Positions 1 to 49,955 of a stretch of DNA of 60,097 nt are shown here, one piece after another. Where the stretch lies: NCBI RefSeq assembly GCF_018977255.1, contig NW_024705237.1:1-60097 (forward strand). The letters run 5' to 3'. The stretch is from Callorhinchus milii. Its lineage: Eukaryota. The notes beneath the pieces were generated by a model. The model was not told the DNA's origin. It was given only the letters and a program-made list of their open reading frames with translations, and did not search any database. The position numbers were made by a program, and so were the translations under genes. The first letter of the stretch is position 1; each line of letters begins with the position of its first letter.

Positions 1-3000
1 CCAGGAGCTCACGCTAGTCTCAACTGTAAATTAACCGTACCCCTGCAAGTGGTGCTGATTTTATACGCTCAGCTGGTGTGCGGTGGCCTGCCGCGTACAA
101 AGAAATATGTGATCGCCCGTCCAGTGTATATACCAGCCCGTTGCACCCGACGTCTTATTGTCTGCGTGGCTGAATTACGTCAAGTTGATGATCGATTTCC
201 GATTCGTAAACCGGGAGACCATCAGGTTGTTCATTTCTTGGACGCCTTCTGAACATCTACAATCTTTACCCAATTGAACAAAGTGAGCCATCCCGCGGGG
301 ACCCAGCATATTACGAGTCGCTTCTACACATCCAAGTACGCATCTATTTCGGCAGCGGCGATGATATAGATTTTCCAGGTGGTGTACACACCGACTAAAG
401 TCCGATTTTGAGACAGACCATCCGCGGGAAAAAGCTTACATACCCCGCTGCCGAAGCAGTTCGTATATGCCATTTAACAGCATATGAGTATTTAGAATAA
501 TTTTATTACTGGAAGCACTGTCATTATATAAAGAATCGGGGCCGTCGATAAGAGGGTGTTTTTTTCTATCTCTTGTCCTCGGATAGACTGTCACAGGCAG
601 AGGACCCCTTGGGAAAGTCACGAGTCTTGGTAGTATGGGATGTGCCTATGCAGAACACACAAACGTGTAAGGCCGTAAAAACTATGTTGAAAAAAGCGCT
701 CTCTGACCGCCCATTTTGACAGGATGAGGGGATCCGCTGTAGGATCTGGCAGGGCATGTTTACTTCGTCGCTTTTCGAAGGGCTGCCATGAGGTTAAGGT
801 GACCCTCCTCCAATAGGGTAATTTTTTTCTTGATGATCGCCTTGGGCGCTTGCAAGGTGCACCGTTAGGTGCGCCGTAAGCTTACCGCGGGTAAGCTATG
901 TAACAGAATGTAAGGACTTCAACATGGACACTCTAACTGAACTTACAACGAAGCCTTTGGTGCAGTGAGCTGTGTCTGAGGGACAGTTGGGGACAACTCC
1001 GGGTGGTGTATTCTGGCGGTGGTTACGGCCGCATAATGAGTTCGATTGCCTAGCATGACCCTTCAGGCTAGCCACTTGTAGCGTGCAAGGCGAGACCGTC
1101 GTGTCAGAGGCTCCCTAATGTACGTGTAGACTTAAGACTCTCCAGAACCGCGTTTAGTGTGGTAACGAGATCGAACCCAAATACTTCTTAGATCCTGATA
1201 GTTTACTATATCTCTAAGAAACGCTTCACCCAAAGCTACTGAACGTGTGATCTACGTTAGAACTAGGGGCATAAGCTCGGGGGAGGTAGTAACGATCAGA
1301 GCAGGTCTCATCGTCCAAATACTGAGAAACCGACTGGAAGTAGGAAACGCCGCTGGGCGAATCAGTACTCCAGGATTAAGAACTGCGCTTAAAAAGCGAC
1401 ATACAAATTAATGGATGGACGCAAAGGAATGGTGAGACATCTGTAAGTTCATCGAAAATCATGGGCAATCTCGGGTCTTGCCACGCGTTAAAGGGCTAAC
1501 GCTTGTGTCGGGTTCACCTGTGGAAACGAAACTACGCACAACCCAGACATAAGGTAGCCTAGTCGTAACGTCACTAATACGCAACACCATGAGGTCTCCA
1601 TCCCGTAGTGCATCAACGCTTGCTACTATGAATATAGAGAATTTCAACGGTAGATACATCCATTACTCTATAGCTTGGTGTGTACTGTACCCGTACGAGG
1701 GGGGTACGTCAATCGGTCCGGACATAACTTGAAAAAAACAAACTACCTACTCATTCAAGTGATTCAAGTATGAAGCGCAAATTATCGTACGCTAATTCGT
1801 GCACCAGATACTGTAACTGTGTGTTTATGATAAGCCCCCCCTATTGTAGGATCGGACTGATTCTAGTCGGGCGGTAACCTTTAATATCTGCCTATTTCGA
1901 ACCGCAGGAAGCAGCATAAGTAAGACCACCTCGTTGAATGTAAGGTCAGATGCATTGCCGTCTGTTGCTGTCCTATGTGTAGAGGCTTTTTTAGCCCCTA
2001 GGCCGGAAAGTATAAGGGTCTCTAGCTATATTCGAACACATAAGGAGGTAAACGAATAGCCCTCACTAACGGCAGCTGTCCACGTTACCCGAGGATCGCA
2101 CAGGGTGATAGAGCCGAAAAAACACAAAAAGTTTTATAATTTCCCATGGATGAACGGGCCTACGAACTCTCAGACACGTTTTTACGGCCCGAGAGAGACC
2201 CAGTATACTACCACGAACGAGGTTTGGTCAGCACCTCATCTGCTATATACATCGACCCCCGATGCAGCAGTCGATAGGCCACATAAATTCTATGAATTTT
2301 CCGGTATGCATAATATGTGCAGTCCTGTAGCAGAGCTTTAGTCCCCACGATATGGTTGTGAAGGCTACATCGCCTCCGCCTACACACACGAAAAGGCTGA
2401 TACCAGAAGACTACCGTTTAGAGGTCATTTATTCTGACGCGTCTGGCTTTCATTTACACACTGCCCTATATCATATTGCAACGCCATAAAGTGGCAAATT
2501 TTCGTGTGTCAACATGGAAGAATTGCCAAATCGCCATGTGATTAGCATCCTTAGATAGGAGTTAGATGACTATGACGAATCAACGGCCCTAAGGCCCAAC
2601 TGCCCTACACCGTGACTGGCGGCCGGGCCCTCGGCTAAATAAAACGGTATAATAAGAAGAACACGCTGCTGCGGTCAGATGAGAACTGATTGTGTCAGAC
2701 GCACTCCCTTGCAACCTTGAGACATCGGATGGCATTGAAATCCATAAACTAGCGTAAACGTATCCCATAATGGTTGGGCGTCAGCGCCAGTGTGGCGGTT
2801 TTCACTACAAGTTGTATCAGAACATGGTGTAGGCCGATGCTCTACCACTGTCTATCTGGCAAGCGGCCCGCCCTTAAGGACTGTGCACGCGACACAACCT
2901 CGGTTAGTGTTGTCCCAGTATATTTATCTCCCACTTTTTAGATATTGTCAGGCTCAAATGTAGACAACAATTTTAGGATTTAGCGTTCACCAGTTGTACA

Positions 3001-6000
3001 CCACCTCGTTAATTAACGTTTTCCTAGTGTCAGTCTTAACTTCTAACGCATCGGGCGGTGCCCATGTGTGACTTGCCGGACTTGTTCTCAGTGGCCGCGA
3101 AAGACACTCTTCACACCCCGAGGAGGGATTCTACTATACGATATGGCAAATGCGTCATGATCGACGCACACGTCTGTCCTCGCCGTCCGTGTTGACAGAG
3201 ATAGGAAACGTTTAGTGACTAGCTATGACTCTAAGCGCATATGTCCACCTGCTCACATTCTAGCGCTTCCGAAGTTTTGGGCGCGTGGCACCTGTCGTCG
3301 GGTTCCTACTGTTTGAAGGGACTCGGGGAAGTAGGCCTTATCCGCGGCGCGCACTCTCGCCTACCTGGCGAAATACTAAGAGAGGATCTCCTTCCCGCCG
3401 TTATAAGAAAGTCGCGTGTTCCCCGCGGGGGATAGTCTTCTTGACGCCAGTCCCATCAAGAATTTTAAGTTAGGAGGGCTTCTTCCTTCATGCGGACTCG
3501 TAAGGTCTTGGTACGGTAGTAATGCACCACCAGAGAGATTTCCTTAGCAAAGCAGCGGGGATGATGTGGAAACGGCGCTATGGGGTGTTTCCTCTAGAAG
3601 CGCAGAAACGCCATTAAGCGTACGAACGAAAGAAGTGTGTATAAGAACATGGTCCGAACCTGCTGCTTTACAAGTTGGGCGATTGCCTCCTAGAATCAGA
3701 ACGTCGGCAAGGCCTCATCAGTGTTAGTATTTATGTACAATAATCATAAGGACCCGGACCATATACGCAATTTATATTATTTTCACATTTCACGACAATC
3801 CGACTGTGGCGTGATGACCCATCGGTGGTTCACTAAACATGGCGTGGGAGGCTAATGTCGAGGCTCCAATTTGGCCCGCGACGTCTAGACGGCCACTAGG
3901 AGCCGAAGCTGGAATAGAAACAAGTAATCTTTGAGTCGGAAAATTTATGTGCCGGAGAGTGCATATGGCGCAGACCCCGCTAGAATGCACAAGCGGACTT
4001 CGAGCTTCTGCCACATAGTTCGCAGCAACGGCTGCAGGTGCTTACAATCGAATGAACACGGAAACGTAAAGGGCGTAGCAAGATACCTATCGCCTGTGGC
4101 CGGTACAGTGATTAACGGGTAGCCGTTCTAGTCCTAGCCACATCCGAGCAGCAGACAAACGATCACCGTTACTGTATACTTGAACCCGCAGAACACGTGT
4201 CGGCGCCAAGCGATCCTTTGAGGCGCGTCAACAAACGCCCCCTGGAAAGCGGTCTTTGATACCTGGCCACTTGGTTACCCCAATAAAGAGTGAGTACTTT
4301 GGTTGAACATAAAACGAAAGCTGAACCTGTAGGAGCATCAAGACTAGAGGGATCACTAGCCTCTCCACATAGAAAGAGGTTCGCCACGCACTCTCACCCT
4401 ACTGCATTCAAAACGTATCCATGAAAGGGGGAGATTTACCAAGAGGTGCAACCCTCTGTAACCACCCAACATTATGTGCCCAGAAAGATGTTATCCCGGG
4501 AAGGAGTGGGGGCACCGAGCGCTATGTGTTTGAGTGCGTCCGTGCCACCGGCTTTTTACTTAGCGAAGAGCGGTGCCGGTACCAGTGACGCATCGTGGTG
4601 TACTTCAAGAGATGGAGTTACATGTCTTCCGTCCAGCCACTAGGTAAAGGACCGGCCCAACGAGGGCGGATTTGATGACTTCCTGCCTGATTGGGCCGTA
4701 TGGGAGCTGCAAAACGGGAACTCTAGTTCGGGAGGAATTCGCGCAACAACCTCCCAATGGGAGGTTTCACTGCCTTGGTTGACGTGGACAGTCAAATGTG
4801 ACTCCATATCTTTACCACGGCTCAAGAGATATACAACCTCAGCAGAGCCACGCCCGCTAGGTGCAGAAGAACCCACAGTTATCTAGGTCGAACCTAACTA
4901 TGTGAGAAAATATATTTCGGTTTCTCCTTATTATCGACCGGATTGCAGCCACAAGGTGGCTGTTCCTTGACGAGTATCGAGTAGGGTTATCTTCCTAGCC
5001 TGGGAGGTCGCTGCCCGGTAAACGGGTTATGACATAAATGGGACTTGCCGTCACCGATATCCTTGCTACTGATGGGCTTGGACTCTTTGATAGTCCCCAT
5101 TACGGAGATTAACGAACATTAGAAAAGCTAGAAGAATTATTATGAGCCGGAACCTCAGCGATGTGAGACACTTCACACCCGTTACTGTACCAAGAAACGT
5201 GTCAAAACGCCTTAGCGACGGGAGGGAACCGACACTACTAGGCCAAGTGCGGATGACCCACCTTTATTCTTTTCCGGACAGGGTTCTACCCCCAGCTCAC
5301 GGCGGATTGCGCAGGTCTGCACCTTTGCGAGCCCATTGCGAATCATAAGCGATCGACCAAAGGTCCTTCTAGAACTTCTGTAAAGCATATTCTCTTTCCA
5401 ATCGCGTCTATAGCCGGAATCTCTTATATATAAGACACTTCCTCTCCGCCCGGTGCCTCCTATATTCTCCTATGTTGTTCATTCTATGCTTTCCATACAC
5501 AGCAGGGACGTTGAGCGTAGGGATAGCAATGGAGGACGCGTGCTATAGCGAAGAACACCTCTGAAGAACTGTGATTGAGCACCCTTCGCGAATGGGCGGC
5601 CAGCCTTCTACACTTCAGATCTCCATTGTGCGGCAGGCATCTCCTGTTTTTAAAATCAATGCGTGACGCTACGATCGCGGTCTACCACCGGTCTAAGCCA
5701 GGGACATACCGTATGAGCTTCAGCGGGGTGTTCGACAGAACAAGGCTGTATTTATTTGGGCAACTCAGACGCAGTAGCTTAAGTGATAGACCTAGTTCTG
5801 GACTTTGCGTATGCCAGCAGTGAGTCCAGTCAGTAAGTCGTAGAAACTGGAGGACATCCAAATCAACTACAAGAAGGGACTTGAGCTGAACTTATCAGGG
5901 GGCTGATCCGATTGACAGGGCGGTGCTCGTACCTGGAAAGTTTCACTCCCAGAGTGAGCGAAACGTCCCATCGCGAGTAAACAGGATGCTCATGTAGCCG

Positions 6001-9000
6001 TCCCTCTTATCTTCACTGCTAGGTGATACGATATGGCGTCGTAATACTCCGGCAGAAGCGAATAGACCCTGGTATTTGTTGCAAATCACCAGGGCCAAAT
6101 TTATATTGGCGCCCTCCACGTGATTCGAAATGCCGCCAAAAGGAGAAACAACCGACCACCCGTAACTTACTATATTCGTAGACGACGGCGGTCCCCGATG
6201 ATCCTATCGCCGGTATGCCTAGCGACGGGAAGCATATTCTAACGCGCACTGCGTATGAGAAATTTGACGTTCACTAACACCATGGACTCGTCTTTCCGAA
6301 CGGGGAAACGACCGTGTCTCGAGACAGGGCCTCAGTGGGGCCCTCGGAAGAACCCCCCAGCCTAGGGGTCGTGAGATACCTAAAAAAGTTGTTGCTCCAG
6401 TGTCGCAGTTGGACAGTTAGGTCCATCGCTTTCTCTTATGACTCTCGATGAATGGCGCCACTGATTGTTTGCCCGCAGAGTTCCTGATAGAGAGAATGCT
6501 AAGGACTCGCGAGCATCCGGGGGACCCGGTAGAGATTGTTTTCGCGCCTATTCTATGAGGGATGAACATTTGGGACCTCCCTAATCCTGTGGTTCACCCA
6601 TAAATTTAACCTAATTACTACTATCGGTGGATAGGGAATATCCAACTACGGCATCGGTGTTAACCCAAGCATCAGTTACTACGCTTGAGGACCCATATTA
6701 TTGCCTGCCGAACGAAGTCTCGCCTTTAAGCTCCTCCGTGAGTCTGGCTTTTGGTAAATGGCTGCATAATCCGGGCAGCATTTGTCACAGTCATTAAACC
6801 GGGACATCACGCTAAAGCCTATCTCTGCTTCATTTATAGGACCATTAGGGTAGTGCATATCTTAGGTGGCTATCTTATGACCCTATATACAGCCTGGAGT
6901 ATTGCGTCTGTTCATCGGCATGCCTCTTCGGCGTCGGTACCGTATCAGGAGTTAGGAAGATAGCGATGAGACAAGACTATTCGCCATACGGCCCGAGACA
7001 GTCTATCTCTGACTGAAATCTTCGCGAACTCCGGACGACCGATTTTGCCGCGCACCTATTGAGCCGTCTCGCTAGCTAAGTTTACTATATGCCGACAGTA
7101 GTGTCGGCGCGATAATAGCGGAAAGGATGACGCCAGGTGCGGGGTGCGAAAGCCACTGATAAAAGCATAATAATCCCATAGACGCGTGCTTGCCTAACAC
7201 TACACCTAAACATCGATCCGCAGTCGCATACACGTTCTCTAACGATTAGCATCGCTATGCCCCATAGTGAAGCAGGTTGGGGAACGAGGCGAAGCCTTCC
7301 TGTTTAGGTACTACTTACACAGTAAGTGTATGTGTCAAAGAGGCATACTCTCTGTTTGATACAAGCACGGTATTAGAACAGCATGTGAAGAACACACCTA
7401 TGCATACGATGCTGACCGGACAGCGGGTATCGACATTGCCCCCCCCATTTACCTGGCGGGAATATTTGGGCGCAAGTGAGAAATGTGGTCCATGCCTTCG
7501 ATGTAGAGGCACCCAAAGAACGACCATCGAATACGCGCAGCTCGGGTTGATTTCCAGGTAAGTACATCCCGCAACAGAGCTAACAGGGATGTGACATTCA
7601 CACGCTAAGAGTGGCGATTCGTATGGACAAACTATATACATTCTGTGAATACGCGCTTGTTAGACTAATATTTCTTACTCGAGCTTGGCGGGAGGTGTCC
7701 GTTAGGCCGGCAACAGCTCTGTCTAACTTAGAGCCCAATTTTGATTGGCTCCCATGCACCGCTATTAGTCTGTCTGACCGACGAGCCGGATTACACGGAA
7801 AGGTATAGACGAGGAGGTTACCAAAATAAGTAGAACCAAGACATCACCTACTACTTACTTGCTTGGGTTGAAGAACTAGGTGCCTAAGCTCCGCTCAATC
7901 AGGGCTGCGAGAATAGGCCACAACCATCCCGGATCGAAGCAATGATGGGCTCCATCTAACCTACCTTGCGTTCAGGAGCGTGAAAAGGAGCGATACAATT
8001 GTTTGGATTTGCTCCATTAAGGGGGCCGTGAAAGATATTAGTCGGCATCAGAAATACATTTTTTCGTATGCTATCTCATGACCATCGTCTGGGAGGGGTG
8101 CGAAAGTCGAAGTACTACAAGAGTCGAGTACTACTGGGGTTTAGACGTATCAAGCGCTTAGAGCCCGCGTTCTTTAAGAGGCAGTTTCTCGACATTGGGG
8201 GGCGTTGTCGCAGAACCTGTAGCTCCAATTACTATATAGGGGCGGACTTTACTGAAACAGGCCAGAACGAAATCCGGAGCTAAGGAGGGCGTATATTTAG
8301 TGCCGGCCCAATGCCGTCCCAGCATGCCTTCTGTCGAGCTGTCCGGCGTGATGAATCCTATTATTTAAAGCGAACTTTGCATGGGGTGACATGTAGAGAT
8401 CGACGAGTATATAGTTGCTCTACTCCGGGCTACATGTTCTGACTGCGTTCTAAGGATATTGCACGCCCCAATCCAAACCCTCAGGTTGACCTCCAAATTA
8501 GTTGGTGGCATAGCCTATGGACAGTTTTGTTGAGTTGTTATGACGACCGTGTATCTAGCGACGCGTTTCCCGGTCTAACAGAGGAATTCTGACCTTTTCT
8601 TGGGCATGCTAACGCTTTAAGCTAATGTGGGTAAAGAGGTGTGGCAAGGGACGCCGGGGAAAGAAGAGAAGCGTAATTTCTCAACCGATCCGATGTCGCT
8701 AAGTCCCACCTTAAAGTCCGCGGAGTGTCTGGTAGGGGCAGCGCAGACGATCTTTCCTCTCACTCGACTTTAAATAAAGGCTGTCCCATATGGGCCCGCG
8801 CAAAAGGTACCTTGATGGCGTACTTCGCAGGTCGGTTGGCACGACTTTCTATTTGGTCTCGTTACTGATACAGGGTAAGAGGGATTGAATACCGTCCAGG
8901 ATACAGGGCGGTCTGTAAAACTTCGCCTCTCTTCTTGTGATTTGGGGCCGGTAATTCTACGCTGGTATAATAGGGCTACACATCCTCAAAGGTTCACAAA

Positions 9001-11570
9001 GATTCGAGGTGTATGCTACCGGAGCAAATAGTACTTTACCCTCGCTTATACTGGTTTACTCATTTGCGCATGCGGGCTACAGCGGCTGAGGCGTTAATCG
9101 CAAAGGAGCCGCGCAAGTATTTGCTGAGGAAGTGATATGAATTACTGTTTCGCTCTTTACCGCCTATTACGTTAACTTCGATGTACAATTGCGCGAGGGT
9201 TAAATCGGTGAGTGCTAGAGTTACCCCCTTACTATGCAAGTACTGGTAAACACCTCTTGAGTATAACGGCGTCGATCCACGTCCGGAATCGCCTCCATAA
9301 ACACCTCTTTTAAAAGTGTTCAAACACATGGCCGGAGCGGCATGTTTAAATTTGTGTGGAATGGATGTCTCCGGGAGACGATCACTGGAGATCGAGACGG
9401 GGTCCAGGCCAAAGTACAAATCCTAACCCTCCGGTAGTCGAACCCTAAAAGCACAATATTTAAAGCATATCATTGACATGCAGACTTATCCGCCGGCAAC
9501 GATTTGTGCGTAGGTTGTTAGCAATGCTATCCGGCTACCTTCCTAGGCGGACTTATGTTGCGTCACATCAATAGAAGCGCTAACGACGTGGTAAGATGGT
9601 ATTAACCTTGCAGTCCTCCGGCATACAATAAGACGGACGTGCTTCTTCAGTTAGGGGAATATAAGGGTTATTGAACAAACGGGGATCGCCCCGGTACGTA
9701 ATCGGGAGTTTCAGCGTATATACGTAAAGAGGAAGGTATGACTGGTACTGCCGATGCCTAATTGACGAAAATCAGATGGAAGAGAGGTCAGGACACTATG
9801 CCCGGTTATTTGGTGTTCTCTTAGCGACCCCTAACAGCCTAACGTAGTCGCTTCGGGAGGTTTGGTCGACCACGCGTTAGTACTACGTGCTCCGAACTTT
9901 ATCATCATAATGGATATGGGGTGGGATGGGAAGGCTGCCTGCCTTTTCGAAATGCTAACGGGCGACAAGCTCATTATTGATTTTAGGTTAATAGACATGG
10001 TTGTCGCAGGACATACAACACATGAACCGACGCTGAATATGGGTTGTTGTAGAAAATTATAACGATTTACTGACTACGCGCCACCCGGATATCTATCCGA
10101 TAAGGGAAACATCAGCGTTTGGTACCCTACTCTAATTCAGATGGTACGATACTGAGTTCGACATTGACGTCAATTTAGTTTCCACCACATAGTAGCCACG
10201 CGCTACTATCTGATGCTGAGCAAAGTTATTCAAAGACACTGTCGCAGCCCGACCGTTATGAATGTTCGTACATAGCTTAGTTAACAGGCGAGGGTTTTAG
10301 GGGGCAGGTTGCGAAATGTAGTATGCTTTAGAAAGAGACCGGACATATGCTAGATGATTAGCCCCGATAATTGCAGGTCCAGTTCACGGGGTTAAAGGCA
10401 AGAAGCGAGAAACTTCGCCTACCTCACAACATAAACGCTTAGTATTGCCAGAAAGTGGTAGGTTGGTTTTACTCGCTGTTGGGGCAGGATAGTCATAGCC
10501 GTACTAAAATGATACGAGTGATGTTGAGAGGAAAATCTCCAAAATTAGTTCGCCAAACGGTATGCTTTGGTGCACAAGGTGTACAGCGCATTAATACGAG
10601 GATGGCCAGGGCGTGGAAACGTTGTCTAATGTAGTGATTGTTGGAGCGCCGCGAATCGATACCAAAGGGTTTACCGCGGAGAAGTTTTAGTGCCCCTCGA
10701 TTTCATTCAATATAGTTGTAAACGCCGCGCTAAGGACAAAAGGGAGCGATCGCTACTGATCAACCGTTGATAGGATGACCCCGCGTAGTTTTAGGGTTTT
10801 TCAGAAATAGCCCCGATCGGATCCCTACGGCTTAATAGGGTCCAACCATTCCGTCGCGACCTGAACTAAACCATTACTAGACTTCACTATCATGGGAAGT
10901 CAAACCCTGATCATGTTTTATTTATCGGAGATTAGCACTCCAATACCACTATCGTCCTGGGTCACCGGCCAGTATGTGCCCAAGTATTATAATCTCAAAA
11001 CCTGATAGACGCGCGTGCAGTGCCACGTTGGTTGATGCAAGTTAGAGTGGGAGGCATACTCCCAACCCGGCCCTAAACTCAACTATTCCGGAGAAGCGTC
11101 TCAGCCCTTAGGATAGGGGCTGGCGGAACAAAGCTAGAGAGGAGTTCACGTTCGCCTCAATGGGTGCTCGATTGTGCGCAGCTATATGCAAACCTCTTGC
11201 GAGGGTTAGCGTCCGTAGTTACTTCGAACAACTTGCGATGTCGGTGACCCAGCTACGTGTTGGGTACCGTTAAATGTGTAAGAGTCCTCCCTTTACCAGG
11301 GAGCTCGAAGATTACTGAAAAAGTATCCGAGATGGCATATTTATTGAATATGTACTTGCGGAGCCTCTAAATTTGTGTAGCCGAATTCTATTCTTAATTA
11401 CCAGGTTGCCGAACTAGGGCGTACCATGGGTGAATGTGTCCATGATGAACCGTACACGAGGGGGCGTACTGATAAGACCCAGAAGGGCAACACGAGTTGA
11501 GAGTTGTCGACACGACCTTAATGATTGATTATCTGGTCCCGTTTGTAATACATCATCACTGGGGAGACAA
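1..11570. other. Random-like, featureless sequence (probable synthetic or shuffled padding)
   Basis: Near-uniform base composition, frequent CpG and TAG/CTA, no SINE/LINE copies or microsatellites, longest ORF 119 aa. Abrupt switch to repeat-rich DNA at ~11,580; exact junction not determinable. Confidence 0.75.
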
Positions 11571-13740: not shown

Positions 13741-14034
13741 ATGGAAACGTCCTCACGCTCAAGTTGTACCCGAGGCAAAGCGACCTCCAGCTATGGCGCC
13801 ATCTTTTCGCAGAAGCTGTCGCTGAGGCTGCTGCTGCTGTTGCTGCCACCGCTGCTGCTGCTGCTGAATGTGGCCGTGGCACAGCGCGAGAGCGCAGGCC
13901 GCGCGTCCGTCCTCTCGATGTTGCGGTGCAAGCAGGTGGACGTCGCCAAGAACCTCTCCTCCGGATACGGGTGCTTCTGCCACGCGAGATTCCGCCACGC
14001 AGAGCCCCAGGACGAATTGGACTTGTGCTGCATG
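13741..14034 (+). CDS. Secreted PLA2-like repeat protein, coding exon A (signal peptide and N-terminal half of the PLA2 domain)
   Basis: Polypyrimidine/CAG acceptor directly before 13741. Leu-rich signal peptide (LRLLLLLLPPLLLLLNVAVA). sPLA2 motif MLRC..YGCFC..P.DELDLCC. Phase-0 donor ATG|GTGAGG at 14034/14035. Confidence 0.85.
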
Positions 14035-14597
14035 GTGAGGCTTGGCTGGGGGTAATTCGTAGAGTGAGTGAGAGAGGCACCGATGCTGCGTTGGGGCGAT
14101 GGATAAAGGCCTCCCCAAACCGGATTTGCGATTGTCTCTCACAAAAACACTCATGATATAGATTTATGTATTATATGATTTTTCATAGAATTAGGACCCA
14201 TATCTAAAAAATCCTTACCCGATAAACATCTGGTAGATCACCAGCATTGGTCTAAGCCAGCGTGACTTGTGGTGATACACTGTACGTTGAGACCAGTCCA
14301 GAGTTTGCTTGTGTTCAACCCATGCTGGTTAAATTACGCACTCACAGAATGCCGTGTAGATAATGGGATGTGTTGAAAATTTTTATATTCATGTGGAGGG
14401 AGCGATATGTCAAGGAGGCATATTATCTTCTTATTTATTTCATCCATAAGTGGATTGACAAAGAGCTGTGAGAAAGAAACGAAGTTTCCTTGTTTCAGTT
14501 CATTTAGTTAATCCAGGTTCTCACCAATTTCATACTAAAACATCTGCCTGTCTGCCCACATGTTCCTTGGTCCATTCGTTCATCCCCGTGGCTAAAG

Positions 14598-14945
14598 ATG
14601 GCCCACTGCTGTGCCCGCGCCGCAATCCTCGACTACTGCCAGTCGGAGAGTGGCCTGCAAACGCTCGAGGCCAAACTCAAGGAGCAGCCCTCCTGCAAGA
14701 CACATCGGCCTGCGGCATCACGCAAGACCGACGAGCGTTCGGAGGCCACGGTGACCCGAGATGCCGTGGTAGAGGTGCTGGAGGCCGTGACAGAGGAGTT
14801 GAAGGAGATGACTGTGAAGGAAAAGCAAAGAGTGGAGCGGGAGGCCAACACGACGTGTGAGCGGGTGCTGTACGAGTGCGAGCGGGCGTTGTACATGTGC
14901 GCCAGCGATGCACCTGTGCGGCCTGATTTGGTCGGGCTCCCCCAG
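14598..14945 (+). CDS. Secreted PLA2-like repeat protein, coding exon B (C-terminal half of the PLA2 domain)
   Basis: AAG| acceptor in phase 0. Reads MAHCC..DYC..PSC..TCERVLYECERALYMC, matching sPLA2 C91-x6-C98-x6-C105 spacing. GC3-rich. Donor CAG|GTGAGT at 14945/14946, phase 0. Confidence 0.85.
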
Positions 14946-14987
14946 GTGAGTGCAGGTTGCTTCGAGATATTAACTACCTCGTGGGGT

Positions 14988-15255
14988 GCCACGGTGGCGA
15001 GATATTAACTACCTCGCCTGGTATTCAGGAGGTCGTGGGTTTGATCCCGACCCTGACGCCTGTATATTTGGAGTTTTCATGTTCTCTCCTTGGTTGTGTG
15101 GATTTTTCTTCGGGTCCTCCGGTTTTTCCCTCCTGATTTACATATTTGGCTGCTATAAATTTCCACATAAGCCACTTCATTGAGCTGTCATTTGTGGCCA
15201 AGTCGCTTCTAAAAATGAGCTATATAGCTCAGTGGGCCTTACCTGGGAAAATAAA
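14988..15255 (+). mobile_element. V-SINE-like SINE (family A)
   Basis: tRNA-like head with B box GGTTTGATCCC, V-domain-like core GGAGTTTTCATGTTCTCTCC..GGGTCCTCCGGTTT, A-rich tail. Confidence 0.85.
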
Positions 15256-16368
15256 CATTGTTATGTTTATAGTTTAATAGTATTTTTTTTATTCACACAC
15301 TGAGTATGGATTGCAAATTAAATGGGGTTTTTGGATTGGCACGTGATCTTTAAAAAAATACTTAAAACGAATTCTAGCTCCACATCGGGTGTTTACATGA
15401 ACAGGCACAATTTAATCAAAAATATTTTATTGTCTATATTCAACACAGGCCTAAAGCCCCATAATGCAAAGCAGCCAGCAACAAAACATGAATGATAAAT
15501 ACAACACATAGTATCGCCCCAATGCTCATTCGAGCAAGAAATCACCGACCGACTTTTTGGAATAGAGCAAGTCTATAAGAACTTGGGAAAATAAACAATG
15601 GGAGTTCCAAAATCAGAAACTAAGGGCACAGCAGATAAGATGAGATGTATAGACTTTATTGAACAACTTTGTAGAAACTCGGTGAAAGAGATGATAGAAA
15701 ATAACTCCTCAGTCGAACAGGTGAGAACAGGAGAATGTTAAATCTCCTGCAGTGTAGTTGTTGGACACAGTAGGGATACCAGGAAATTGTCATCTTGATA
15801 GGAAGGGCATCAATGTGTGAATTTCCTGGGCACAATGATTGGTCGTGCCCATTAAAGAGTGATAAAGAAGTAAGACAGCAACTGCAGTGAATCAATGTGT
15901 GCAGGAGGACCATTTAACTGAACTGCTCTGTTAAATTGTACAAGCAGAATTTACAGTATTCTGACCAATTCAAAACAGTGCTTATCATAGGATCTGCACA
16001 TGTCGCATGTACATCACGAGATGTCCCACACAAGTTTGAGGTTCACTTCATCATTTATTTTCAAGTTATAGTAAGCGGTGTATCATTGTGGCACTTTAGT
16101 GACGTCGCGAGACCTTTTTACAATTCAAGTTGAGGGAGCTGGATTAATTCTGGTATGGTAGGACTATAACGGATGGAGATGACATGCAGAGACCTTCATC
16201 CTGCAGTGGCTATACAATGATTGATGATGATTAATCGTATTTTATAGCCCTTAGACACAAATGAATGCATGAAAAATGAGTGTAAGCTTCTATCTTAATG
16301 AATTATAACATACCTAATGTTTGCCAACCCTGACACTCTCCCTTGTCGATACTCCCGCCGGCCTCTAG

Positions 16369-19300
16369 GATGAGGTCTGCAGGGCCAATATCGACCGGCC
16401 AGTGTGCTCGCTGGAGCCAGCACCGACCAACCAATCTACAGCCATACCTACCACCAGACCTGTTACTGGACTCACAAAACAAATTCCCAGTTCTACAGCC
16501 AGACCTACAACCAGTTCTATTACTAGACTCACAACAACACCTACCACCAGTACTACAGCCAGACCTACCAGCCGATCTTTTTCCTGGCTTACAACCAGCT
16601 ATTCGACCAGTTCTATAGCCAGATCTTCGAACAGATCTTCTGACAAATCGACAGACAGGTTCACTGAACATTTACTCAATCTGATTACTGGAAGCGAAGA
16701 GACCTCCAGAGAAATGGTGACAGGAAATGTACACTCAGCACAAAACCATGTTTGGCAACCATCCCATCTCAGAAGCGGTGATGCACACTCACACATACAA
16801 CACCTGGACCCCATTCTCAGGGTTGATAGTGATCTTACACCGAGACAATACCTGCAGCACATTCTGAGGGTTGACAAAGTACACCCACTCAGACATCATC
16901 CATGGCCCAATCTCGCTCTTGGCAGCACACATGCACACCGACAACATAGCCTCACCTGTGACCGAGCACACCCACAGACACGACAGAGTGACAATACACC
17001 CCAAGAGAGACAGCACAGTCTCAGAAACAGCGTATTGCACTTTCTGAAGCAACACCGTAGATACGCTGATTCGAACCTATACAAACAACACCGACCCATT
17101 CATGGCATTGCACATAAACGCATACAACTCTTTGACAGTACATACCCACACAGACAACACCGTGTCAAGAGTGACTATACAGACCCAGAGATACAGCACA
17201 TTCCCACAGGCAACATAATGCGCTTTCTGGGCCAACGTCCTTTTAGAATTGACGATTCACAACCATACGGACGACACCCTCCCAGAGGTGGCACTACACA
17301 CCCACGTAGACACAGTGTCGAGGGTGACAATACACAGCCAGAGAGACAGCACATTCTCAAAGAAAGCATAATGCGCTTTCTTAACCAACGCCCTTTTAGA
17401 ATTGACGATTCAGAGCGATACGGACAACACCCTCCCAGAGGTGCAGCTACAAAACCACGTGGACAATACAGTTTTGCTGATAGCATCATCAATGGACCCA
17501 CATTTGCTGACGAGAAGAATGTGGGAGATATCATCAATGAACCAACGTTCACTGACGAGTACAATGCAAGAGACACCTTTAATCGACCCACATTCGCTGA
17601 CGAGAACAATGCGGAAGACATCAATGGACCCGACAGTACACACAAACACAGACAACTCCTTGACAGTACATACTCACACAGACAACACCGTGTCAAGAGT
17701 GACTATACACACCCAGAGAGACAGCACATTCTCACAGGCAAAACAATGCGCTTTCTGGGCCAACATCCTTTTAGAATTGACAATTCACAACCATACGGAC
17801 GACATCATCCCAGAGGTCCCAATAGACACCCACACGGACATTACAGTTTAGGTGATGGCACCATCAAAGGACCCATGTTCACTGAAGAGTACAATGCAAG
17901 AGACACCACCAATGGACCCACGTTCAATGACGAGAATGATGCGGGAGACACCATCAATAGACCCACATTTCTGACGAGAATGATGCGGAAGACATCATCA
18001 ATGGACCCGACAGTACACTCAAACACAAACAACTCCTTGAGAGTACATACTCACACAGACAGCACCGTGTCAAGAGTGACAATATAGAACCAGAGCGACA
18101 ACACATTCTCACAGGCAACATGATGCACTTTCTGGGCCAGCACCCTTTTAGAATTGACGATTCACAACTCTACAGACGACACCCTCCCAGAGGTGACAAT
18201 ACACACCCACTCAGACAATATAGTTATGGTGATGGCACCATCAATGGACCCACGTTCACTGACAAGAAGGCGGGAGACACCATGGATGAACTCACATTTG
18301 CTGACGAGAACAATTTAGAAGAAAGCATGGATGGACCCAGATTTACTTATGAGAACAATGCGGAATATACCATGCATAGACCCACATTCACTGACAAGAA
18401 TACGGGAGACACTGTCAATGGACCTAAATTCGCCGAAGAGAACAATGCGGGAGACAGCATGGATGAACCCACATTAACTTATGAGAACAATGTGAGAGAC
18501 ATCATGCATAGGCCCACATTCGTTGATGAGAACAATTCGGGAGATACCATCAATGGATCCACATTCGCTGAAGAGAACAATGCGGGCGACAGCATGGATG
18601 GACCCACATTCACTAACGAGAACAATGCGGAAGACATCATCAATGGACCCGACAGTACACGCAAACACAAACAACTCCTTGACAGTACATACTCACACAG
18701 ACAACACCGTGTCAAGAGTAACAATACAGATCCAGAGCGACAACACATTCTCACAGGCAACATGATGCACTTTCTGGGCCAGCGCCCTTTTAGAATTGAC
18801 GACTCACAACTATACAGACCACACCCTCCCAGAGGTGACAATACACACCCACTCGGACAATACAGTTTTGGTGATGGCACGCCCACATTCACTGACAAGA
18901 ATGCGGGACACACCATGGATGAACCCACATTTGCTGACGGGAACAATTTAGAAGACAGCATGGATGGACCCAGATTGACTTATGAGGACAATGCTGGAGA
19001 TACCATGAATGGACCCACATTCACTGACAAGAATACGGGAAACACTGTCAATGGACCTAAATTCGCTGAAGAGACCTATGCGGGAGACAGCATGGATGGA
19101 TCCACGTTCACTGACAAGAACAATACGGGAGACACCATCAATGGATCCACATTAACTACTCAGAACAATGCGGGAGACACCATGGATGGTCCCACGTTTA
19201 CTGACGAGTACAATACGGGAGACACTGTCATTGAACCCACATTCACTGACGAAAACAATGCGGGAGACACCATGGATGAAACCACATTTGATGACGAGAA

Positions 19301-20399
19301 CAATGCGGGAGACACCATGGATGAAGCCACATTTGATGACGAGAACAATGCAGGAGACAGGATGGATGGACCCACGTTCACGGATCAGAACAATGCGGGA
19401 GACACCATGGATCGATCCACATTTGCTGAAGAGAACAATGCAGGAGACACCATCAATCGACCCACGTTCACGGATGAGAACAATGCGGAAGACACCATGG
19501 ATCTATCCACATTTGCTGAAGAAAACAATGCGGGCAACAACATGGAAGGACCCACGTTCACTTATGAGAACAATGCAAGAGACACCGTGAATGGACCCGC
19601 ATTCGCTGATGACAATCCGGGAGACACCATGGATGAACCCACATTTGATGACGAAAACAATGCTGGAGACATCATAAATAGATCCACGTTTACTGAAAAG
19701 AAAAATGCAGGAGAAACCATTCACGAACCCACATTTGCTGACGAGAACAATTTAGAAGACAGGATGCATGAACCCAGATTGACTTATGAGAACAATGCGG
19801 AAGATACCATGAATGGACCCACATTCACTGACAAGAATACGGGAAACACTGTCAATGGATCCACATTCACTAACAAGAACAATGCGGGAGACACCATTAA
19901 TGGTCCCACGTTTACTGACGAGTACAATGCAGGAGACACCATCAATGAACCCACGTTCACTGACAAGAACAATACGGGAGACACTGTCATTGAACCCACA
20001 TTCACTGACGAAAACAATGCGGGATACACCATGGATGGACCCACATTAACTGATGAGACCAATGCGGGAGACACCATGGACGGACCCACATTTACTGATG
20101 AGACCAATGCAGGAGACACCATCAATGGACCCACATTCACTTACGAGAACACTGCAGGAGACACCATGGACGGACCCACATTCACTGACGAGAACAATGT
20201 GGTAGAATCCATCGATGGACCCACGTTCACTGATGAGACCAATTCGAAAGACACCATGGGTCAATCCAAATTCGCTGAAGAGAACAATGTGGGAGACAGC
20301 ATGGATGGACCCACGTTCATTGACGAGAGCAATGCGAGACACACCTTTAATGGACCCACATTTACTGATTATAACAATGCGGGAGACACCATCAGTTGA
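16369..20399 (+). CDS. Secreted PLA2-like repeat protein, terminal exon C (last two Cys, Ser/Thr stalk, His/Arg repeats, acidic repeats); one frameshift at 17970/17971
   Basis: TAG| acceptor at 16368 is in frame with ORF 16402-18087 and gives DEVCRANIDRPVC. ORFs 16402-18087 and 18120-20399 join if one base missing from a repeat unit is restored (TTT-CTGAC versus TTTGCTGAC/TTCGCTGAC in sister units). Confidence 0.8.
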
Positions 20400-20420
20400 C
20401 CCACGTGTACTGACCAGAAA
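17130..20420 (+). repeat. Coding tandem repeats: 45-bp unit (GPTFTDENNAGDTMD) interleaved with a His/Arg-rich ~55-aa block
   Basis: Units visible directly in DNA and protein. The block DSTYSHRQHRVKS..ERQHILTGNMMHFLGQHPFRIDDSQ..HPPRG recurs near 17133, 17310 (partial), 17660, 18040 and 18680. Confidence 0.95.
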
Positions 20421-20640
20421 ATGAGGGACACACTCTTGACTGACAAGAGCAATGTAAGCTACACTCTGGATGAAGCCAGCCTCGCCCAGGGCCTCATCAA
20501 GTGATGATTAACAGTAATGCATCACTTCCACCGCTGTCACCACCATCACCAAGAGCATCACTGTGTCGGAACTGAGCTTGCAATGCGAGTATCTTTCAGT
20601 TACAGTCCTGTATGCAGTCATGTGAAAACAAAAAATGTAA

Positions 20641-20646
20641 AATAAA
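20641..20646 (+). terminator. Polyadenylation signal of the PLA2-like gene
   Basis: AATAAA ~240 nt after the stop codon, followed by a T-rich stretch. Confidence 0.55.
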
Positions 20647-21330
20647 ATAATAATAATAAATCACGTCTATTTTTATTATATATATACTTTACATCCACTT
20701 ACTTGGTCTCATTCACTTACCATTGTTCACTCAATCCCAGCTAATGCTAGCCTCCCCTTTTCTCCACTTATTCTCTACACATTTTTTCATTTATTTTTCT
20801 TCACCTCTTAACCATCATCCAGCCGTCCTCATCTATCTTCAGGCTGCAATGTCCACAATGGAGAGGGGCTATGAGATAGGGTTCAAGAGGCACATTGATT
20901 TTTAGCAGGCCAAGATTTTGTTGCAGAGCTTCACGGTTCGACTCCAGCGGCTGCCCTGGTTACTACTGAAGCGCCATCTGTTTTCACAGTGGACGTTAAA
21001 GTTCCCGTGACATATTTTGCAATAGTAGACCATTGTGTGTGCCAGAGTCATGGTCCAAATTTTGCCAAATAAAAAAAAATACCCGCAAATGACTCAATTG
21101 GTATTTATCAAAACGAGCATCGCCCCCGAGAAACCCTGGCAGGAGCCTCCTGCAAAGAGTCATGAGATGGGGGAGGCTTTCCTGGGCAACCAAGCACACT
21201 CATACAGATAAAGAGCTTGGAAACTCCTTTAGAAGAGAAGATAAATAATTCGTGAGTTTAAAGAAAATGGTATTTTATGCATGAGTGATATCTATATTAA
21301 TATGGGAATCAAGGACAAACCTTTTTCATT

Positions 21331-22658: not shown

Positions 22659-22712
22659 TCGATTAGCACGGTTGGCTACGTACGGTGCGAAAGAAGCTCA
22701 ACATACACACGT
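22659..22712 (+). mobile_element. L2-like LINE extreme 3' end
   Basis: CGATTAGCACGGTTGGCTACGTACGGTGCGAAAGAAGCTCAACATAC; the same motif occurs about 12 times in the window. Confidence 0.7.
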
Positions 22713-23950
22713 ACGAGACAACCATCAAATAAATATTGAACGTACATTAAATACTGCTCGTTAGAAATGCATATAATATGGTTAATAAGTGTACAATCCT
22801 ATACAACTAAAAAAACAGGAATGGCAACATCTGAAAACCACTGTGCAATGAGATGACAAACACACATGATCAAATATCGTCGGGTGGAGTAAAGGGCTAA
22901 TGTGGGGCACAAGGCCTCTTTGTCCTGCTGCTCGCGTGTGGTCCGTCTGTTGAGCAGCAGACACGAGCAGCAGCAGCAGCAGGGCCTGTGCAGGAGGGCG
23001 CCAGTCCACACCTCCACCTCATCGTGGCTCAAGACGCTACTTCGGTTCGCACCACGATTGAAAGAGGTCTCTCACCCCCCCCCCCCCCACATTCTACCCT
23101 CAACATTCAGTCATTGGTCGTGTGCAAAACCACTTTAAAAACGAATTGTAAAAGAGAGATGGTAAATCCTGAAGATGCAAAAGCTGTCAACATGCATACG
23201 CATATAAATGTTTAAAAAATATATTTTAAAAGTAATGTTTTAAAAACTGCAGGACCCTCTGCGCATTCACAGATCCGAGGCGAATCATTCCCCAGCGTTG
23301 GGGGCTGTTGGAACCCTCTGCCACACCACGCATCCTGCCTCTCCGTTCGAGTGGCACACTCGGTAGACCTGCACCCTGTGACCCCCCCCACCCAGCCCCA
23401 CGTGTGATGCATGAAACAAGGGATTTAGAAAATCAAGAGCATGAATTGCCTCCTTCTGTCAAGCTGGGGTGCAATTCAATAATAAAACAGGCTTGTGATT
23501 GTATTTGCAGAAGTCTTCAGCAAATATATTTAAGACCACCGCTCTTAGCATGAATAAAGAATGTGGTTAACATTTTTAGTATTCTCTACCCCTGGGCTTC
23601 AATGGCTCGTGTTTTGAAAAGTGCTTGAACATGGCGTGGTATTCTACTGGGGATGTTAACCATCGGATTGGCTCGTGATTGGAAACTGCACGATCCATTT
23701 CATGCGAGTTACCCGGTTTGGGTTCTGAAGCTGCCAAAGTGGAGACTCTGAGAACTACATATACACCACTTAAAGGTACACTGTGTTATATGAGGCACAC
23801 ACACACACGCCGTACATAATACCCTGAAGGTTAACCACAGTTAACAGATACAATTTTTCTGCAGAGTAATTACATTTCACATTTCAGTCTTTGCTACTTA
23901 ACATGCTGCACTTAAAATGTATATAATTAACTATACTATAACAAAAAAAT

Positions 23951-35379: not shown

Positions 35380-38300
35380 GACAACACCGACAACAACACA
35401 AACAACAACACAAACACTAACACCAACAACAACCATCATTCGCCACTAAGTGGCGGTGACGTCACCACGACGCTTGTGCCAAGCTATGTGCACGTTGAGG
35501 CCACGTGAAATGTGGAATGCCCACTGGCAGGAGGTCACGGGGCAGACCCAGGTGCCACGGGTCGACTGACTGAGATGACTGGCTGATGCACCACCTGTAC
35601 CCCCTACTGTGTCAACTTGCTATGCTTTAGCTACCCGGCGCTCCACTCGTTGTTGTGAGCGTCGCTCCTCTGCCTCTTGTTGTTGGAGGGAGACTGCTTC
35701 CAACTGCCAGTAGCGTCCTTCACGAGCCTCCTCCACAGAGGCCGATCTTGACACCGCTGGTACCAGTCATCGGCAAGTCCACTCAGCTCCATATCCTCCT
35801 GTCCCACATCACTCTGTCTCTTCTTCAGCCCGTGCCGTGCCCGTTTAGCCCCCTCATCCGGCCGAACAAAAGCTGTTTAGGCATGCGGTGGCTAGGCATG
35901 AGGGCTACATGACCCACCAACGCAGTCTTGCCTGACGGAGCTCACCGATAGGACTTTGTCCACATCTTTAAAGGATTCGTGAGCTCCTCACACAATCCAG
36001 CCTGGTTAAACCCAGGGTCGATCATAGGCAGGCCAGCCTAAATGTTTCTAACCGGCGAAGATGTTCCATTAGGGGGGTCCACGTTTCGCAAGCGTAGAGA
36101 AGGGAGGGAATGACTGTGGCCGAGAAGACCTGAAGCTTCGTGTGGAGCGAAAGACCAGGTAGCTTCCACACAGCGTTACGCAACCGATGAAAAGATAATG
36201 CCGCTTGACTGATTCGGAGTGAGACCTTTCCTCTCAAACCGGAGCCAGTCATGAGCACACTGCCCAGTTATGGGAAACTCTCCACTCTCTCCACAACTGC
36301 TCTATCACCGATTTGGAGTTGTGGGGGCAGGTGCTTAGTTTTGGTGGGCTCATGGTACGGCCCCACCTCTTAGTGGCACGATCCAGGTTCAGCAGCAGCG
36401 CCTACAACTCCTCTGAGTGAACAGTAATTAACAGATCATCGGCATACATAACATGGTTGAGAAATAGGGAGCCATCCCTTGACTGCCCTTGGGCATCGAT
36501 CAGCCTCCCATTGTATCTGTACCAGATGCCCCAGGGCATCCTTCCAATCCTGCGGAACCCGTCCAGTGGTCCAGATTGTTATGATGTCATATAGGGCAGT
36601 CTCTGCACAAACGCCACCCTTCCTAAGCATTTCGTTTGGGAGATCATCTCTGCTGGTGCCTTTCCTGGTCTCAGACGCTGGATCGCCTTCAGTACTTCCT
36701 CAACAGATGGCACCTCAGCCAGCCACTCACAGGGGGTGACTTCTTCCAATATTTGAGCCACCGCAGCCTCAGCAGGGTTATCCCTACTTTGTGCTATGAT
36801 GTTTTCCAGGCTGAGACATTTCCCCTCCCCGGATCTCACAGAAATGCTCAGCAAATCTGCAAACCTGTTCCTGGGGGTCGGAGATTGGATCACCGTTCTT
36901 TCCCCTAATGATGGTAATAGGTGTGGCGCTGCAGGTTACTTTTTTATGGAGTTAAAGAGCGATTTGTGACCACCACCCATCCTTGCAGCACCTCACGGCT
37001 CTCTTAACCTCTGAGCGAAGGCTGCGGTAAGCCTCGTTCTCTGACGTGGGATGCTGTAGACGATGAGAGTGGGCCTGTGCTTTTTCTCAGCCAGCCTGAA
37101 CACCTCTGACAACCCGGGTCTCTGGGGAGATCTGGACCGTGTACCTAAAGCAGCCATTTCAGCTGCATTAGCCACATCCTAAACCTCGCCCATTTCCCCT
37201 CGATATCAGGAGGAGTGGGGGACGATGCCAACCCCAGCCGCAAGCGATGATGAAATTCTCACTTGCAACTTTCATCAGCTAGCTGAGCCCATACCACATG
37301 GGTTTGAATGGGGTCCTGGGTATACACCCACTACCAGAGTGGAAGAATGGCAGGCGCATCTTAAATGACAAGTCGATGGTCAGTGGGCAGATCAGCTCCA
37401 CCGTAGGTCCTGGTGTCAAGGACATGGGCCCGCATCCGCTGTTCCATCACTATATAGTCCAGCAGATGTTCTTGCTTGGACCCAGCATGCATCCATATGT
37501 TGTGTGGATGCACCGATGCCTGAGCAGCGTGTTGGTAATTACAAGCCCATAAGCTGCACATAAATATAACAGCCTCCTACCGTTGTTATTGAGCTGATCT
37601 GGCCCATGCTTTCCAATCACTCCAGACCAGGTGCCAGCATCATGACCAACTCAGGCATTGAAGTCACCCAACAAGATAACTCTATCCCGAGGGGCCACTT
37701 TAGCTAGCACCTGTGACAGGATGTCATGGAAGGAATCTGACTCATCGGCCTTGTCTGCATCCCTCCACGGATGTTCGTCTTCGGTGGGGGCATAAGTAAC
37801 CACGACCACTCCTCGCCTCTGGTTGATGGGAAGGCGAGCCCAAAGTAGCCTGGGGCTTACAGCTTCCCACACCTCACTGCCATGCTCCCATGCCCCCTTC
37901 ATTATTTTGTTCAGAAGAAGATCCACTCCCTCTTGTTTGGCAGTCTCCTGCCCCTAGTAGAGGACTGTCCACCCCTCATGGTGGCAGGAGCCAGAGCTGG
38001 TCCACCGGACCTCCTGAATACCACAGAGATCCAGGCGGTACCAGTCCAGCTCCCGACAGAGGAGTGGCAGCCTCTCCTCCGCAGTGAGCGGTCGAACTTT
38101 CCACATGGCCACCGTAGTGGTTTTTTGTTGTTTCTGGAGGAGCCCCGAGGGTAAGGATTCAGTCTCCTGGCTCCGCCAAATGGGGTTTGGCCAGGAGACG
38201 TCATAGACGCCTGTCCCCCCGGGGCCTCCGGCACAAGCTTAATCACATTTTAAATCGTGTTTCGTGGTAATTAATTAAGGTGGAGGGGTTACCAGCCCCT

Positions 38301-41680: not shown

Positions 41681-41732
41681 TCCCAGCGCAGCACCTCCGC
41701 CCTCACACACCCCGAGCACCGCTTACCTCCTC

Positions 41733-41892
41733 CGCACGTGTCTCTCTCTCTGTCTGCGTGTGCGTGGCTCTCTCTGTCTCTGCGCACGTGTCTCTCTCTG
41801 TCTGCGTGTGCGTGGCTCTCTCTGTGTCTCTGCGCACGTATCTCCCTCTCTGTCTGCGTGTGCGTGGCTCTCTCTGTGTCTTGCGCACGTGT
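41733..41892 (+). repeat. ~50-bp minisatellite (three units plus a partial) in the presumed 5' UTR
   Basis: Unit CGCACGTGTCTCTCTCTGTCTGCGTGTGCGTGGCTCTCTCTGTCTCTG. Confidence 0.9.
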
Positions 41893-41961
41893 CCTCTTCT
41901 CTTTGTGCTGACGCCGAGCGGCTCTGAGTCATCTCGCCGACTCGCCGAACCCCGCGCCGAG

Positions 41962-49400: not shown

Positions 49401-49955
49401 TGGGTTTAGCGACATAGTGGGCCACACTCCACTACGCTATGTGGTGGGTTTAGCGACGTAGTGGGCCACACTCCACCACGCTGTGTGATGGGTTTAGCAA
49501 CGTAGTGGGCCACACTCCGCCGCGCTGTGTGGTGGGGTTAGCGACGTAGTGGGCCACACTCCACCACGCTGTGTGATGGGTTTAGCGACGTAGTGGGCCA
49601 CACTCCACTACGCTGTGTGGTGGGTTTAGCAACGTAGTGGGCCACACTCCACCACGCTGTGTGGTGGGTTTAGCAACGTAGTGGGCCACACTCCACTACG
49701 CTGTGTGATGGGTTTAGCGACGTAGTGGGCCACACTCCACCACGCTGTGTGATGGGTTTAGCGACGTAGTGGGCCACACTCTACTACGCTGTGTGGTGGG
49801 TTTAGCAACGTAGTGGGCCACACTCCACCACGCTGTGTGATGGGTTTAGCAACGTAGTGGGCCACACTCCGCCACGCTGTGTGGTGGGTTTAGCGACGTA
49901 GTGGGCCACACTCCGCCACGCTGTGTGATGGGTTTAGCGATGCAATGGGCCACAC
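46419..49955. repeat. Tandem satellite, 34-bp unit with a 44-bp variant (~95-100 units)
   Basis: Unit GCTGTGTGGTGGGTTTAGCGACGTAGTGGG(A/C)CAC; the variant adds ACACTCCACC-like 10 bp. Confidence 0.97.

Follow-up and report, generated by a model that had tools for sequence, protein, structure and literature searches.

A window of 60,097 nucleotides deposited within the Callorhinchus milii assembly GCF_018977255.1 (contig NW_024705237.1, positions 1 to 60,097, forward strand; the host assembly hereafter) carries a genuine, intact and spliced lamprey gene that has been skipped by all public gene models found. To judge from sequence comparison, its product joins a catalytically disarmed head of the secreted phospholipase A2 (sPLA2) type to a charged repeat tail of ~1,300 residues, an architecture that is seen in lamprey only and was previously unannotated. 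The features of this chain and its analogies with known systems suggest that it could act as a secreted, non-enzymatic, cation-binding matrix scaffold, a reading that seems about evenly poised between right and wrong.

Exons, reading frame and transcripts

The gene consists of three exons (13,741-14,034, 14,598-14,945 and 16,369-20,399) with GT donors and AG acceptors, joined in phase 0 (Table 1), and the chain comprises 1,557 amino acids (aa) when one X is placed at a break near 17,970; with the letters of the window unrepaired, the protein would stop at 786 aa. Exon 1 encodes 98 aa, matches PF00068 on its own (E 2.5e-4) and shows 85-98% identity to lamprey models, and exon 2 encodes 116 aa. 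A polypyrimidine tract and an AG precede the ATG, so that a further exon upstream of exon 1 is likely. In the Kyte-Doolittle profile, the signal segment is the sole hydrophobic 19-mer (2.35), the maximum in exon 3 being -0.09, and since this segment alone is hydrophobic, a transmembrane segment is absent. Coordinates, splice contigs and hydropathy therefore agree with the original prediction of a three-exon, phase-0 GT-AG architecture of ~1,557 aa without a transmembrane segment.

Table 1. Features of the lamprey gene and its downstream region, in positions of the window
Position	Strand	Feature	Remark
13741..14034	+	Coding exon 1: N-terminal 27 aa, signal segment (~aa 28-49), first half of the head to the CC pair	
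14598..14945	+	Coding exon 2: remainder of the head, degenerate catalytic helix, ~47-aa insert, last helix (Glu for Asp99)	
16369..16407	+	Start of exon 3: two C-terminal cysteines completing the group X / OC90-type cysteine set	Paralogue begins alike
16411..16683	+	Ser/Thr/Pro-rich, mucin-like stalk, ~90 aa	Paralogue P0012 has one too
16726..17463	+	His/Arg-rich basic region, 246 aa, 28 His, net charge +15, isoelectric point (pI) 10.7	Unit ~51 aa
17464..18881	+	Alternating blocks: three ~75-aa His/Arg units separated by short runs of acidic 15-mers	
17965..17972	+	One-base assembly slip	Frame broken in the window only
18882..20399	+	Terminal acidic array of 45-bp / 15-aa units	e.g. PTFTDENNAGDTMDE at 19,236; stop 20,397-20,399
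20641..20660	+	Two AATAAA polyadenylation signals	Poly(A) read depth maximal just upstream
22958..23066	+	Alternative downstream exon of short public models that bypass exon 3	P0002, P0005, P0006 match 97-100%
23273..23414	+	Final exon of the short models	Both C-terminal cysteines absent from these forms

Splicing from exon 2 into exon 3 is seen in two contigs. In run X18, which is RNA only by guess, 347 nucleotides (nt) of exon 2 are joined to 424 nt of exon 3 (14,945 to 16,369), while a contig of run X17, also RNA by guess and from another study and organism, has its start at the acceptor of exon 3 and carries there a loose end of 18 nt identical to the end of exon 2. The reads across this junction for which the original prediction had called are thus at hand, together with low-level transcription. 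The exon 1-exon 2 junction was not found among the read rows listed, and it is supported by all nine public orthologue models and by the paralogue described below. Poly(A) reads of run X23 reach a depth of up to 41 in the bins of exon 3, climbing toward the 3' end, and leave the unique intron bins at 0.

The frameshift near 17,970 is missing from five of the six runs that cover the site, X18 and X24 lying outside it. In four studies covering organisms A, C and D, contigs of X1, X7, X12 and X17 carry one extra letter at the break at full contig depth; in X23 (organism B), the extra letter is present in all 12 raw poly(A) reads, which have two start sites, and the single contig of X20 is ambiguous at the break (17 mismatches, 1 gap). 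The frameshift is therefore regarded as an assembly slip, and the product as a protein of 1,557 aa. The stop at 20,397-20,399 is unaltered in X1, X7, X12 and X17 and in contigs C1195 and C529 of the host assembly, and the frame is intact across 1,343 codons in the contigs from organisms A, C and D, as it is in organism B at the break. Beyond the stop (20,400-20,507), degenerate repeat units continue in frame for ~35 codons, up to a double stop; judged by this context, the stop in use has the look of a recent truncation and might be read through.

These data also bear on whether the stretch is a pseudogene or an artefact of assembly, as the frameshift of the window, the foreign contig and a near-random start of 11.5 kb could suggest. 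Nevertheless, 20 runs from 11 studies carry the stretch, the break is confined as described, the splice is seen twice, and exon 2 shows 89-98% identity to its orthologues in three genera, so that this reading is largely refuted and must be considered highly improbable.

Public annotation conceals the gene because its models omit the last exon. The orthologue models LOC133349205, LOC133347783, LOC133345183 and LOC133344659 (L. reissneri), LOC144722350 (L. planeri) and LOC142924639 (P. marinus) are 85-98% identical to exons 1 and 2, and all nine models of the set, which leaves out isoforms X1 and X2 of LOC133349205 and X1 of LOC144722350, stop at most 120 aa past a head, by reading through into intron 2, by skipping downstream or by entering exon 3 out of frame. 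The two-head model P0005 is a fusion of two gene copies. In addition, the first 40 aa of a sea lamprey sialyltransferase model, P0011 (XP_032810396.1), correspond to the head of this gene with 88% identity, a segment that could be either a stray copy of exon 1 or part of a mis-joined model.

A phmmer search of 1.84 billion representatives returned three matches, all from lamprey, and L. reissneri harbors four near-identical orthologue loci. One of the three matches leads to a paralogue of 553 aa in L. reissneri (XP_061409585.1, P0012; automatic name mucin-5AC-like), whose head is 67% identical when the insert is left out of the comparison, and which shares the start of exon 3 with its two cysteines, a Ser/Thr stalk and one unit of the His/Arg type; CAM9408056.1 and CAM9490963.1 are related uncharacterised lamprey entries. 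Literature searches for lamprey phospholipase A2, otoconin/OC90 and the LOC identifiers gave no description of this gene, subscription papers and bioRxiv supplements being beyond reach, and the accessible part of PMC4944945 contains nothing on it.

The phospholipase-type head and the charged tail

The joined exons (P0007) pass the PF00068 profile with 33.6 bits against a cut-off of 32.1, P0003 (31.5) and P0006 (31.6) remaining just below, in keeping with the sPLA2 fold of the original prediction; that description overlooked an additional insert of ~47 aa after the Cys77-type residue, located exactly at the position of a host-gene intron and perhaps, at a guess, a retained intron. In the residue and cysteine numbering of sPLA2s, all three lamprey rows have Ala for His48, His for Asp49, Ala for Tyr52 and Glu for Asp99. 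The catalytic helix reads CCxxAHCCA across the splice, versus CCxxHDCCY, and the calcium loop Y-C-G-x-G-G is replaced by FCHARF, with the loss of the loop glycines. With the residues of active sPLA2s and the calcium loop gone, the head appears to be catalytically disarmed, as had been proposed.

The head contains 14 cysteines that correspond to seven known disulfide pairs, including both group X / OC90-type pairs, the pairing being deduced from alignment, and both partners of the eighth pair (84/96) are missing in all three lamprey rows. The retention of seven pairs and the loss of the eighth on both sides point to a folded, selected domain. The last two cysteines are encoded by the first 13 codons of exon 3, human group X having a like ending, and the in-frame splice of exon 2 to exon 3 would thus complete the fold. 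A low-confidence Atlas model of the paralogue head compares with a cluster of group IIE PLA2 at a template-modelling (TM) score of 0.63 by target (113 residues) and 0.46 by query. The net charge of the head is about neutral, and no second sPLA2 domain was found in exon 3, leaving a single domain per chain.

The tail is markedly different in composition along its length (Table 1). The final 509 aa have a net charge of -93 and a pI of 4.05, with 17.9% Thr, 22.2% Asp+Glu, 13.8% Asn and 2.8% Ser; the acidic 15-mer is made of three pentapeptides, and 23 TFT motifs are present, a pattern that might give rise to a beta-solenoid. The mature chain has a pI of 4.9 and 12 N-glycan sequons. DSPP and Starmaker-type proteins have repeats rich in Ser and Asp with many S-x-E or DSS sites. 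With the DSPP/Starmaker/SIBLING group, the gene shares the RGD motif and a single large terminal exon that encodes a long acidic tail of low complexity; unlike DSPP and Starmaker, it lacks Ser-Asp repeats, contains only four S-x-E sites and 5.7% Ser in exon 3, and gives no sequence match. The comparison with Starmaker/DSPP made originally, and the idea of Ser/Asp-rich acidic repeats, are therefore abandoned, since the array is rich in Thr, Asp, Asn and Gly and poor in Ser.

Searches with the tail were blank. Exon 3 has no Pfam match with E < 1, an Atlas search with the repeat gave a best score of 0.84, under the lead level, and no protein with such a tail was found among proteins of 936-2,670 aa and of 444-1,414 aa, a blank that is weak by method. 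With no matching annotated protein in the tail and phmmer searches, the earlier statement that both modules were not known in one chain still holds. An EF-hand-like reading of the repeat was tried by eye and fits in no register. Five tail motifs gave 0 matches in the buccal gland peptidome (supplement of PMC10381800), which is uninformative because the accessions in the rows shown come from a P. marinus database in which the tail is probably missing.

The reading frame of the array is protected, as in-frame stops number 0, versus 5-51 in the other five frames, the probability of no stop in a neutral-mutation simulation is 0.033, and every length variant is whole-codon. These observations are relevant to a further explanation, in which head and stalk would form the working unit, as in the paralogue, and the charged tail would be a minisatellite that expanded, with no function of its own, in a last exon under loose constraint. 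A paralogue without the tail, the weak constraint on its residues, a stop that falls inside a repeat unit with degenerate units following in frame, and the very close relationship of the runs compared are all consistent with such an expansion. However, the absence of stops, the restriction to whole-codon length changes over ~46 units and the ordered alternation of two unit types across 4 kb speak against it, and this explanation seems quite improbable.

Relatives of the head and candidate roles of the protein

The head was compared with nine sPLA2-type domains of the host, among which OC90-type domains are represented by a single gene from one species, a degenerate two-domain gene on contig C2 that we infer to be OC90. 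The nearest host domain is domain 2 of this gene, with 28.7 bits in the profile versus 23.5 for group X, 31% versus 28% identity and a local score of 124 versus at most 94, and both this domain and the lamprey head have His at position 49 and lack Tyr52. Two trees of 11 rows, which exclude a broken host gene, place the lamprey head beside both OC90-type domains (87/92 and 91/93), on branches that are long and unstarred. Grouping with the pancreatic type is rejected (p 0.047 and 0.037), whereas grouping with group X is not (p 0.18 and 0.21), so that the phylogeny suggested by the original prediction sets the pancreatic type aside and leaves group X in contention. With the cysteines masked, the scores of the host domains no longer separate (30 versus 20-28). 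Moreover, intron sites differ: the host OC90-type domains are interrupted ahead of the CC pair and ahead of the last helix, the lamprey head behind CCM and ahead of its final two cysteines, and this head has none of the introns common to the OC90-type, group X and pancreatic-type genes of the host. The link with OC90 is thus a lead rather than orthology, because the branch is long, only one OC90-type gene was sampled, introns differ and the gene neighbours are unreadable; by the tests run, the head does not appear to be an OC90. At two further loci (L027:1414-1968 on G000:C7 and L049:7360-8080 on G000:C1170), the host assembly contains an sPLA2 gene that encodes signal and domain in one exon, with an intact His-Asp pair and 16 cysteines, and a frameshifted relative with which this gene groups.

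Several features relate the gene to known proteins. Like OC90/Otoc1 and Xenopus otoconin-22 (Oc22), its product would be secreted, cysteine-rich and acidic overall, with an sPLA2-like domain devoid of catalytic residues and N-glycan sequons; unlike OC90, which has two domains, it has one head, has lost the 84/96 disulfide, and contains the ~47-aa insert and other introns, and its acidity sits in the 1,300-aa repeat tail instead of the head. Group X sPLA2 (PDB 1le6 and 4uy1; the host gene on C16) resembles the head in the 11-77 pair, the pair linking 50 to the C-terminus and the eight residues between Cys51 and Cys61. In contrast to group X, the lamprey head lacks the catalytic dyad, Tyr52 and the calcium loop, has 18% identity outside the cysteines, and carries a long insert and a tail.

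One explanation built on these relationships is a lamprey otoconin, an OC90-related ear protein organising the calcium phosphate statolith, whose tail would stabilise amorphous mineral. In the accessible text of PMC3105080, OC90 is described as inactive, sPLA2-like, acidic, Cys-rich and glycosylated, binding otolin and sequestering calcium, and Oc22 as an otoconin with one domain, which offers a one-domain precedent; according to the available part of PMC6937729, cyclostome ear bodies are amorphous and phosphatic, and the otoconin reading is attractive for this reason. The proximity to OC90-type domain 2 with its shared His49 and loss of Tyr52, the agreement of both trees and the rejection of the pancreatic-type grouping argue for the otoconin-like idea already present in the original prediction. 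Against it stand the unstarred and long branches, the unrejected group X and the overlapping cysteine-masked scores, the dependence on one OC90-type gene of one species, named from two degenerate domains, the missing host-shared introns, the single domain instead of two, the roughly neutral charge of the head and the unreadable synteny of the gene neighbours. In addition, the four near-identical L. reissneri loci suggest a fast-changing gene. Taken together, a lamprey otoconin is a possibility, although a doubtful one.

The product could also be a fast-evolving secreted ligand or effector of glands, immunity or gamete recognition, in which the disarmed head or RGD would act on receptors and the tail would serve as a spacer or a source of peptides. 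The very long branch, the recent copies and the two RGD motifs would fit such a role, and non-catalytic sPLA2 homologues such as those of snake group II can act by protein binding, as stated in the part of bioRxiv 10.1101/583344 that was available. Nevertheless, the RGD motifs, both in the last two ~75-aa units, are near the number expected by composition (0.61) and derive from one duplicated unit, so they were rejected as an integrin signal; no furin site (R-x-K/R-R) occurs in exon 3, and a 169-kDa polyampholyte would be a costly ligand. This role is thus unlikely.

The scaffold reading may be formulated as follows. The signal segment and the lack of a membrane anchor would lead to secretion, and the disulfide-locked head, by analogy with OC90, could dock onto matrix partners or onto further heads. 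To judge from composition, the Ser/Thr/Pro stalk would be O-glycosylated and extended, acting as a spacer, the acidic array of pI 4 could gather calcium with low affinity and high capacity, and the His/Arg blocks of pI 10.7 might pair with this array or with polyanions, their histidines possibly adding metal cross-links. The opposite charges would then condense the chain into an extracellular matrix. A head with a mucin-like stalk, the form seen in the paralogue, may have been the starting point of the family, and repeat expansion inside the last exon would then have given this copy its charged tail. The matrix formed may be an ear stone, an egg coat, mucus or a gland secretion; a role in secretion or gel formation is at least as likely as that of an otoconin, because the paralogue lacks the array, the head is not acidic and the OC90-type introns differ.

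Several observations weigh against the scaffold. Expression is low, roughly 6 and 1 reads per kilobase per million (RPKM) in the raw poly(A) runs X23 and X24, respectively, values that a bulk structural protein would exceed in its own tissue. Unspliced RNA is frequent, intron 2 being covered in X17 and X20, and short forms that skip exon 3 are backed by public models. The paralogue XP_061409585.1 has neither the acidic array nor the block alternation, and the residues of the repeat carry no clear purifying signal, as 16 of 28 possible synonymous and 52 of 104 possible non-synonymous changes are seen.

Origin of the contig and implications for lampreys

On sequence grounds, the DNA of the window is of lamprey and was deposited within a non-lamprey assembly. 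Exon 2 matches lamprey proteins only, which upholds the origin proposed earlier. The chromosome-size contigs of the host assembly (G000; C2 = 125.6 Mb) have CpG ratios of 0.26-0.64 and no repeat in common with the window, and the matches to a window repeat that were scored in this assembly, 40 out of 1,971 candidates, are all on high-numbered contigs (C82-C1586). The host assembly contains lamprey contigs, so that a gene found on one of its small contigs should not be assigned to the host.

The first part of the window (1-11,500) is near-random: its dinucleotides fit independence (chi-square 14.7, p 0.10; 212 and 188 in lamprey-like parts), it contains no tandem repeat and no frame of 150 aa, and depth is zero at 9,500-11,454 in four runs. 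It probably consists of junk or replaced letters, and the 5' neighbourhood of the gene is hidden as a result. Contigs C1195 and C529 share the 3' portion of the gene with its flank at 99% or more, the two versions splitting after position 22,709, and within C529 stretches of up to 8.6 kb are duplicated at 99.5%; from their sequences, these copies could be either haplotypes or recent segmental copies. C1195 was rejected as proof of a diverged second gene, its differences being confined to a ragged contig end, with one substitution in the remainder of the exon.

A scan for gene neighbours gave a Pfam match in 2 of 82 GC-rich frames (picked out of 111), both from one zinc-finger fragment, and no informative neighbour. 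A GC-rich, gene-like region at 41,690-43,256, which follows a TATA-like box and in which long frames of 442 and 412 aa, without a Pfam match, overlap on the two strands, is possibly a frameshifted lamprey gene. On the minus strand, 35,700-38,200 resembles by eye a decayed retroelement of the long interspersed nuclear element (LINE) type, with no Pfam match among the frames tried, and a G-rich satellite of 3.5 kb with periods of 34, 44 and 176 bp occupies 46,423-49,955. The germline-enriched lists in the supplements of PMC10166183 gave 0 matches for phospholipase, PLA2, otoconin, OC90, MUC or ST6GAL, 16 rows being uncharacterised.

It is tempting, if rather unlikely to be correct, to see in this gene the missing otoconin of jawless vertebrates, with an OC90-related head and a lamprey-added tail of acidic and His/Arg blocks performing a SIBLING-type job, through which the calcium phosphate of the statolith would be kept amorphous. 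If true, sPLA2-fold scaffolds of ear stones would predate the split between jawed and jawless vertebrates, and the gene would provide the first candidate protein to explain why lamprey ear stones are amorphous phosphate. As an ear-stone builder, it would open the question of how ear mineralisation arose in vertebrates to tests in a jawless fish; as a builder of a secretion or egg coat, it would represent a new natural block polyampholyte and a further case in which the sPLA2 fold has been reused as a structural module.

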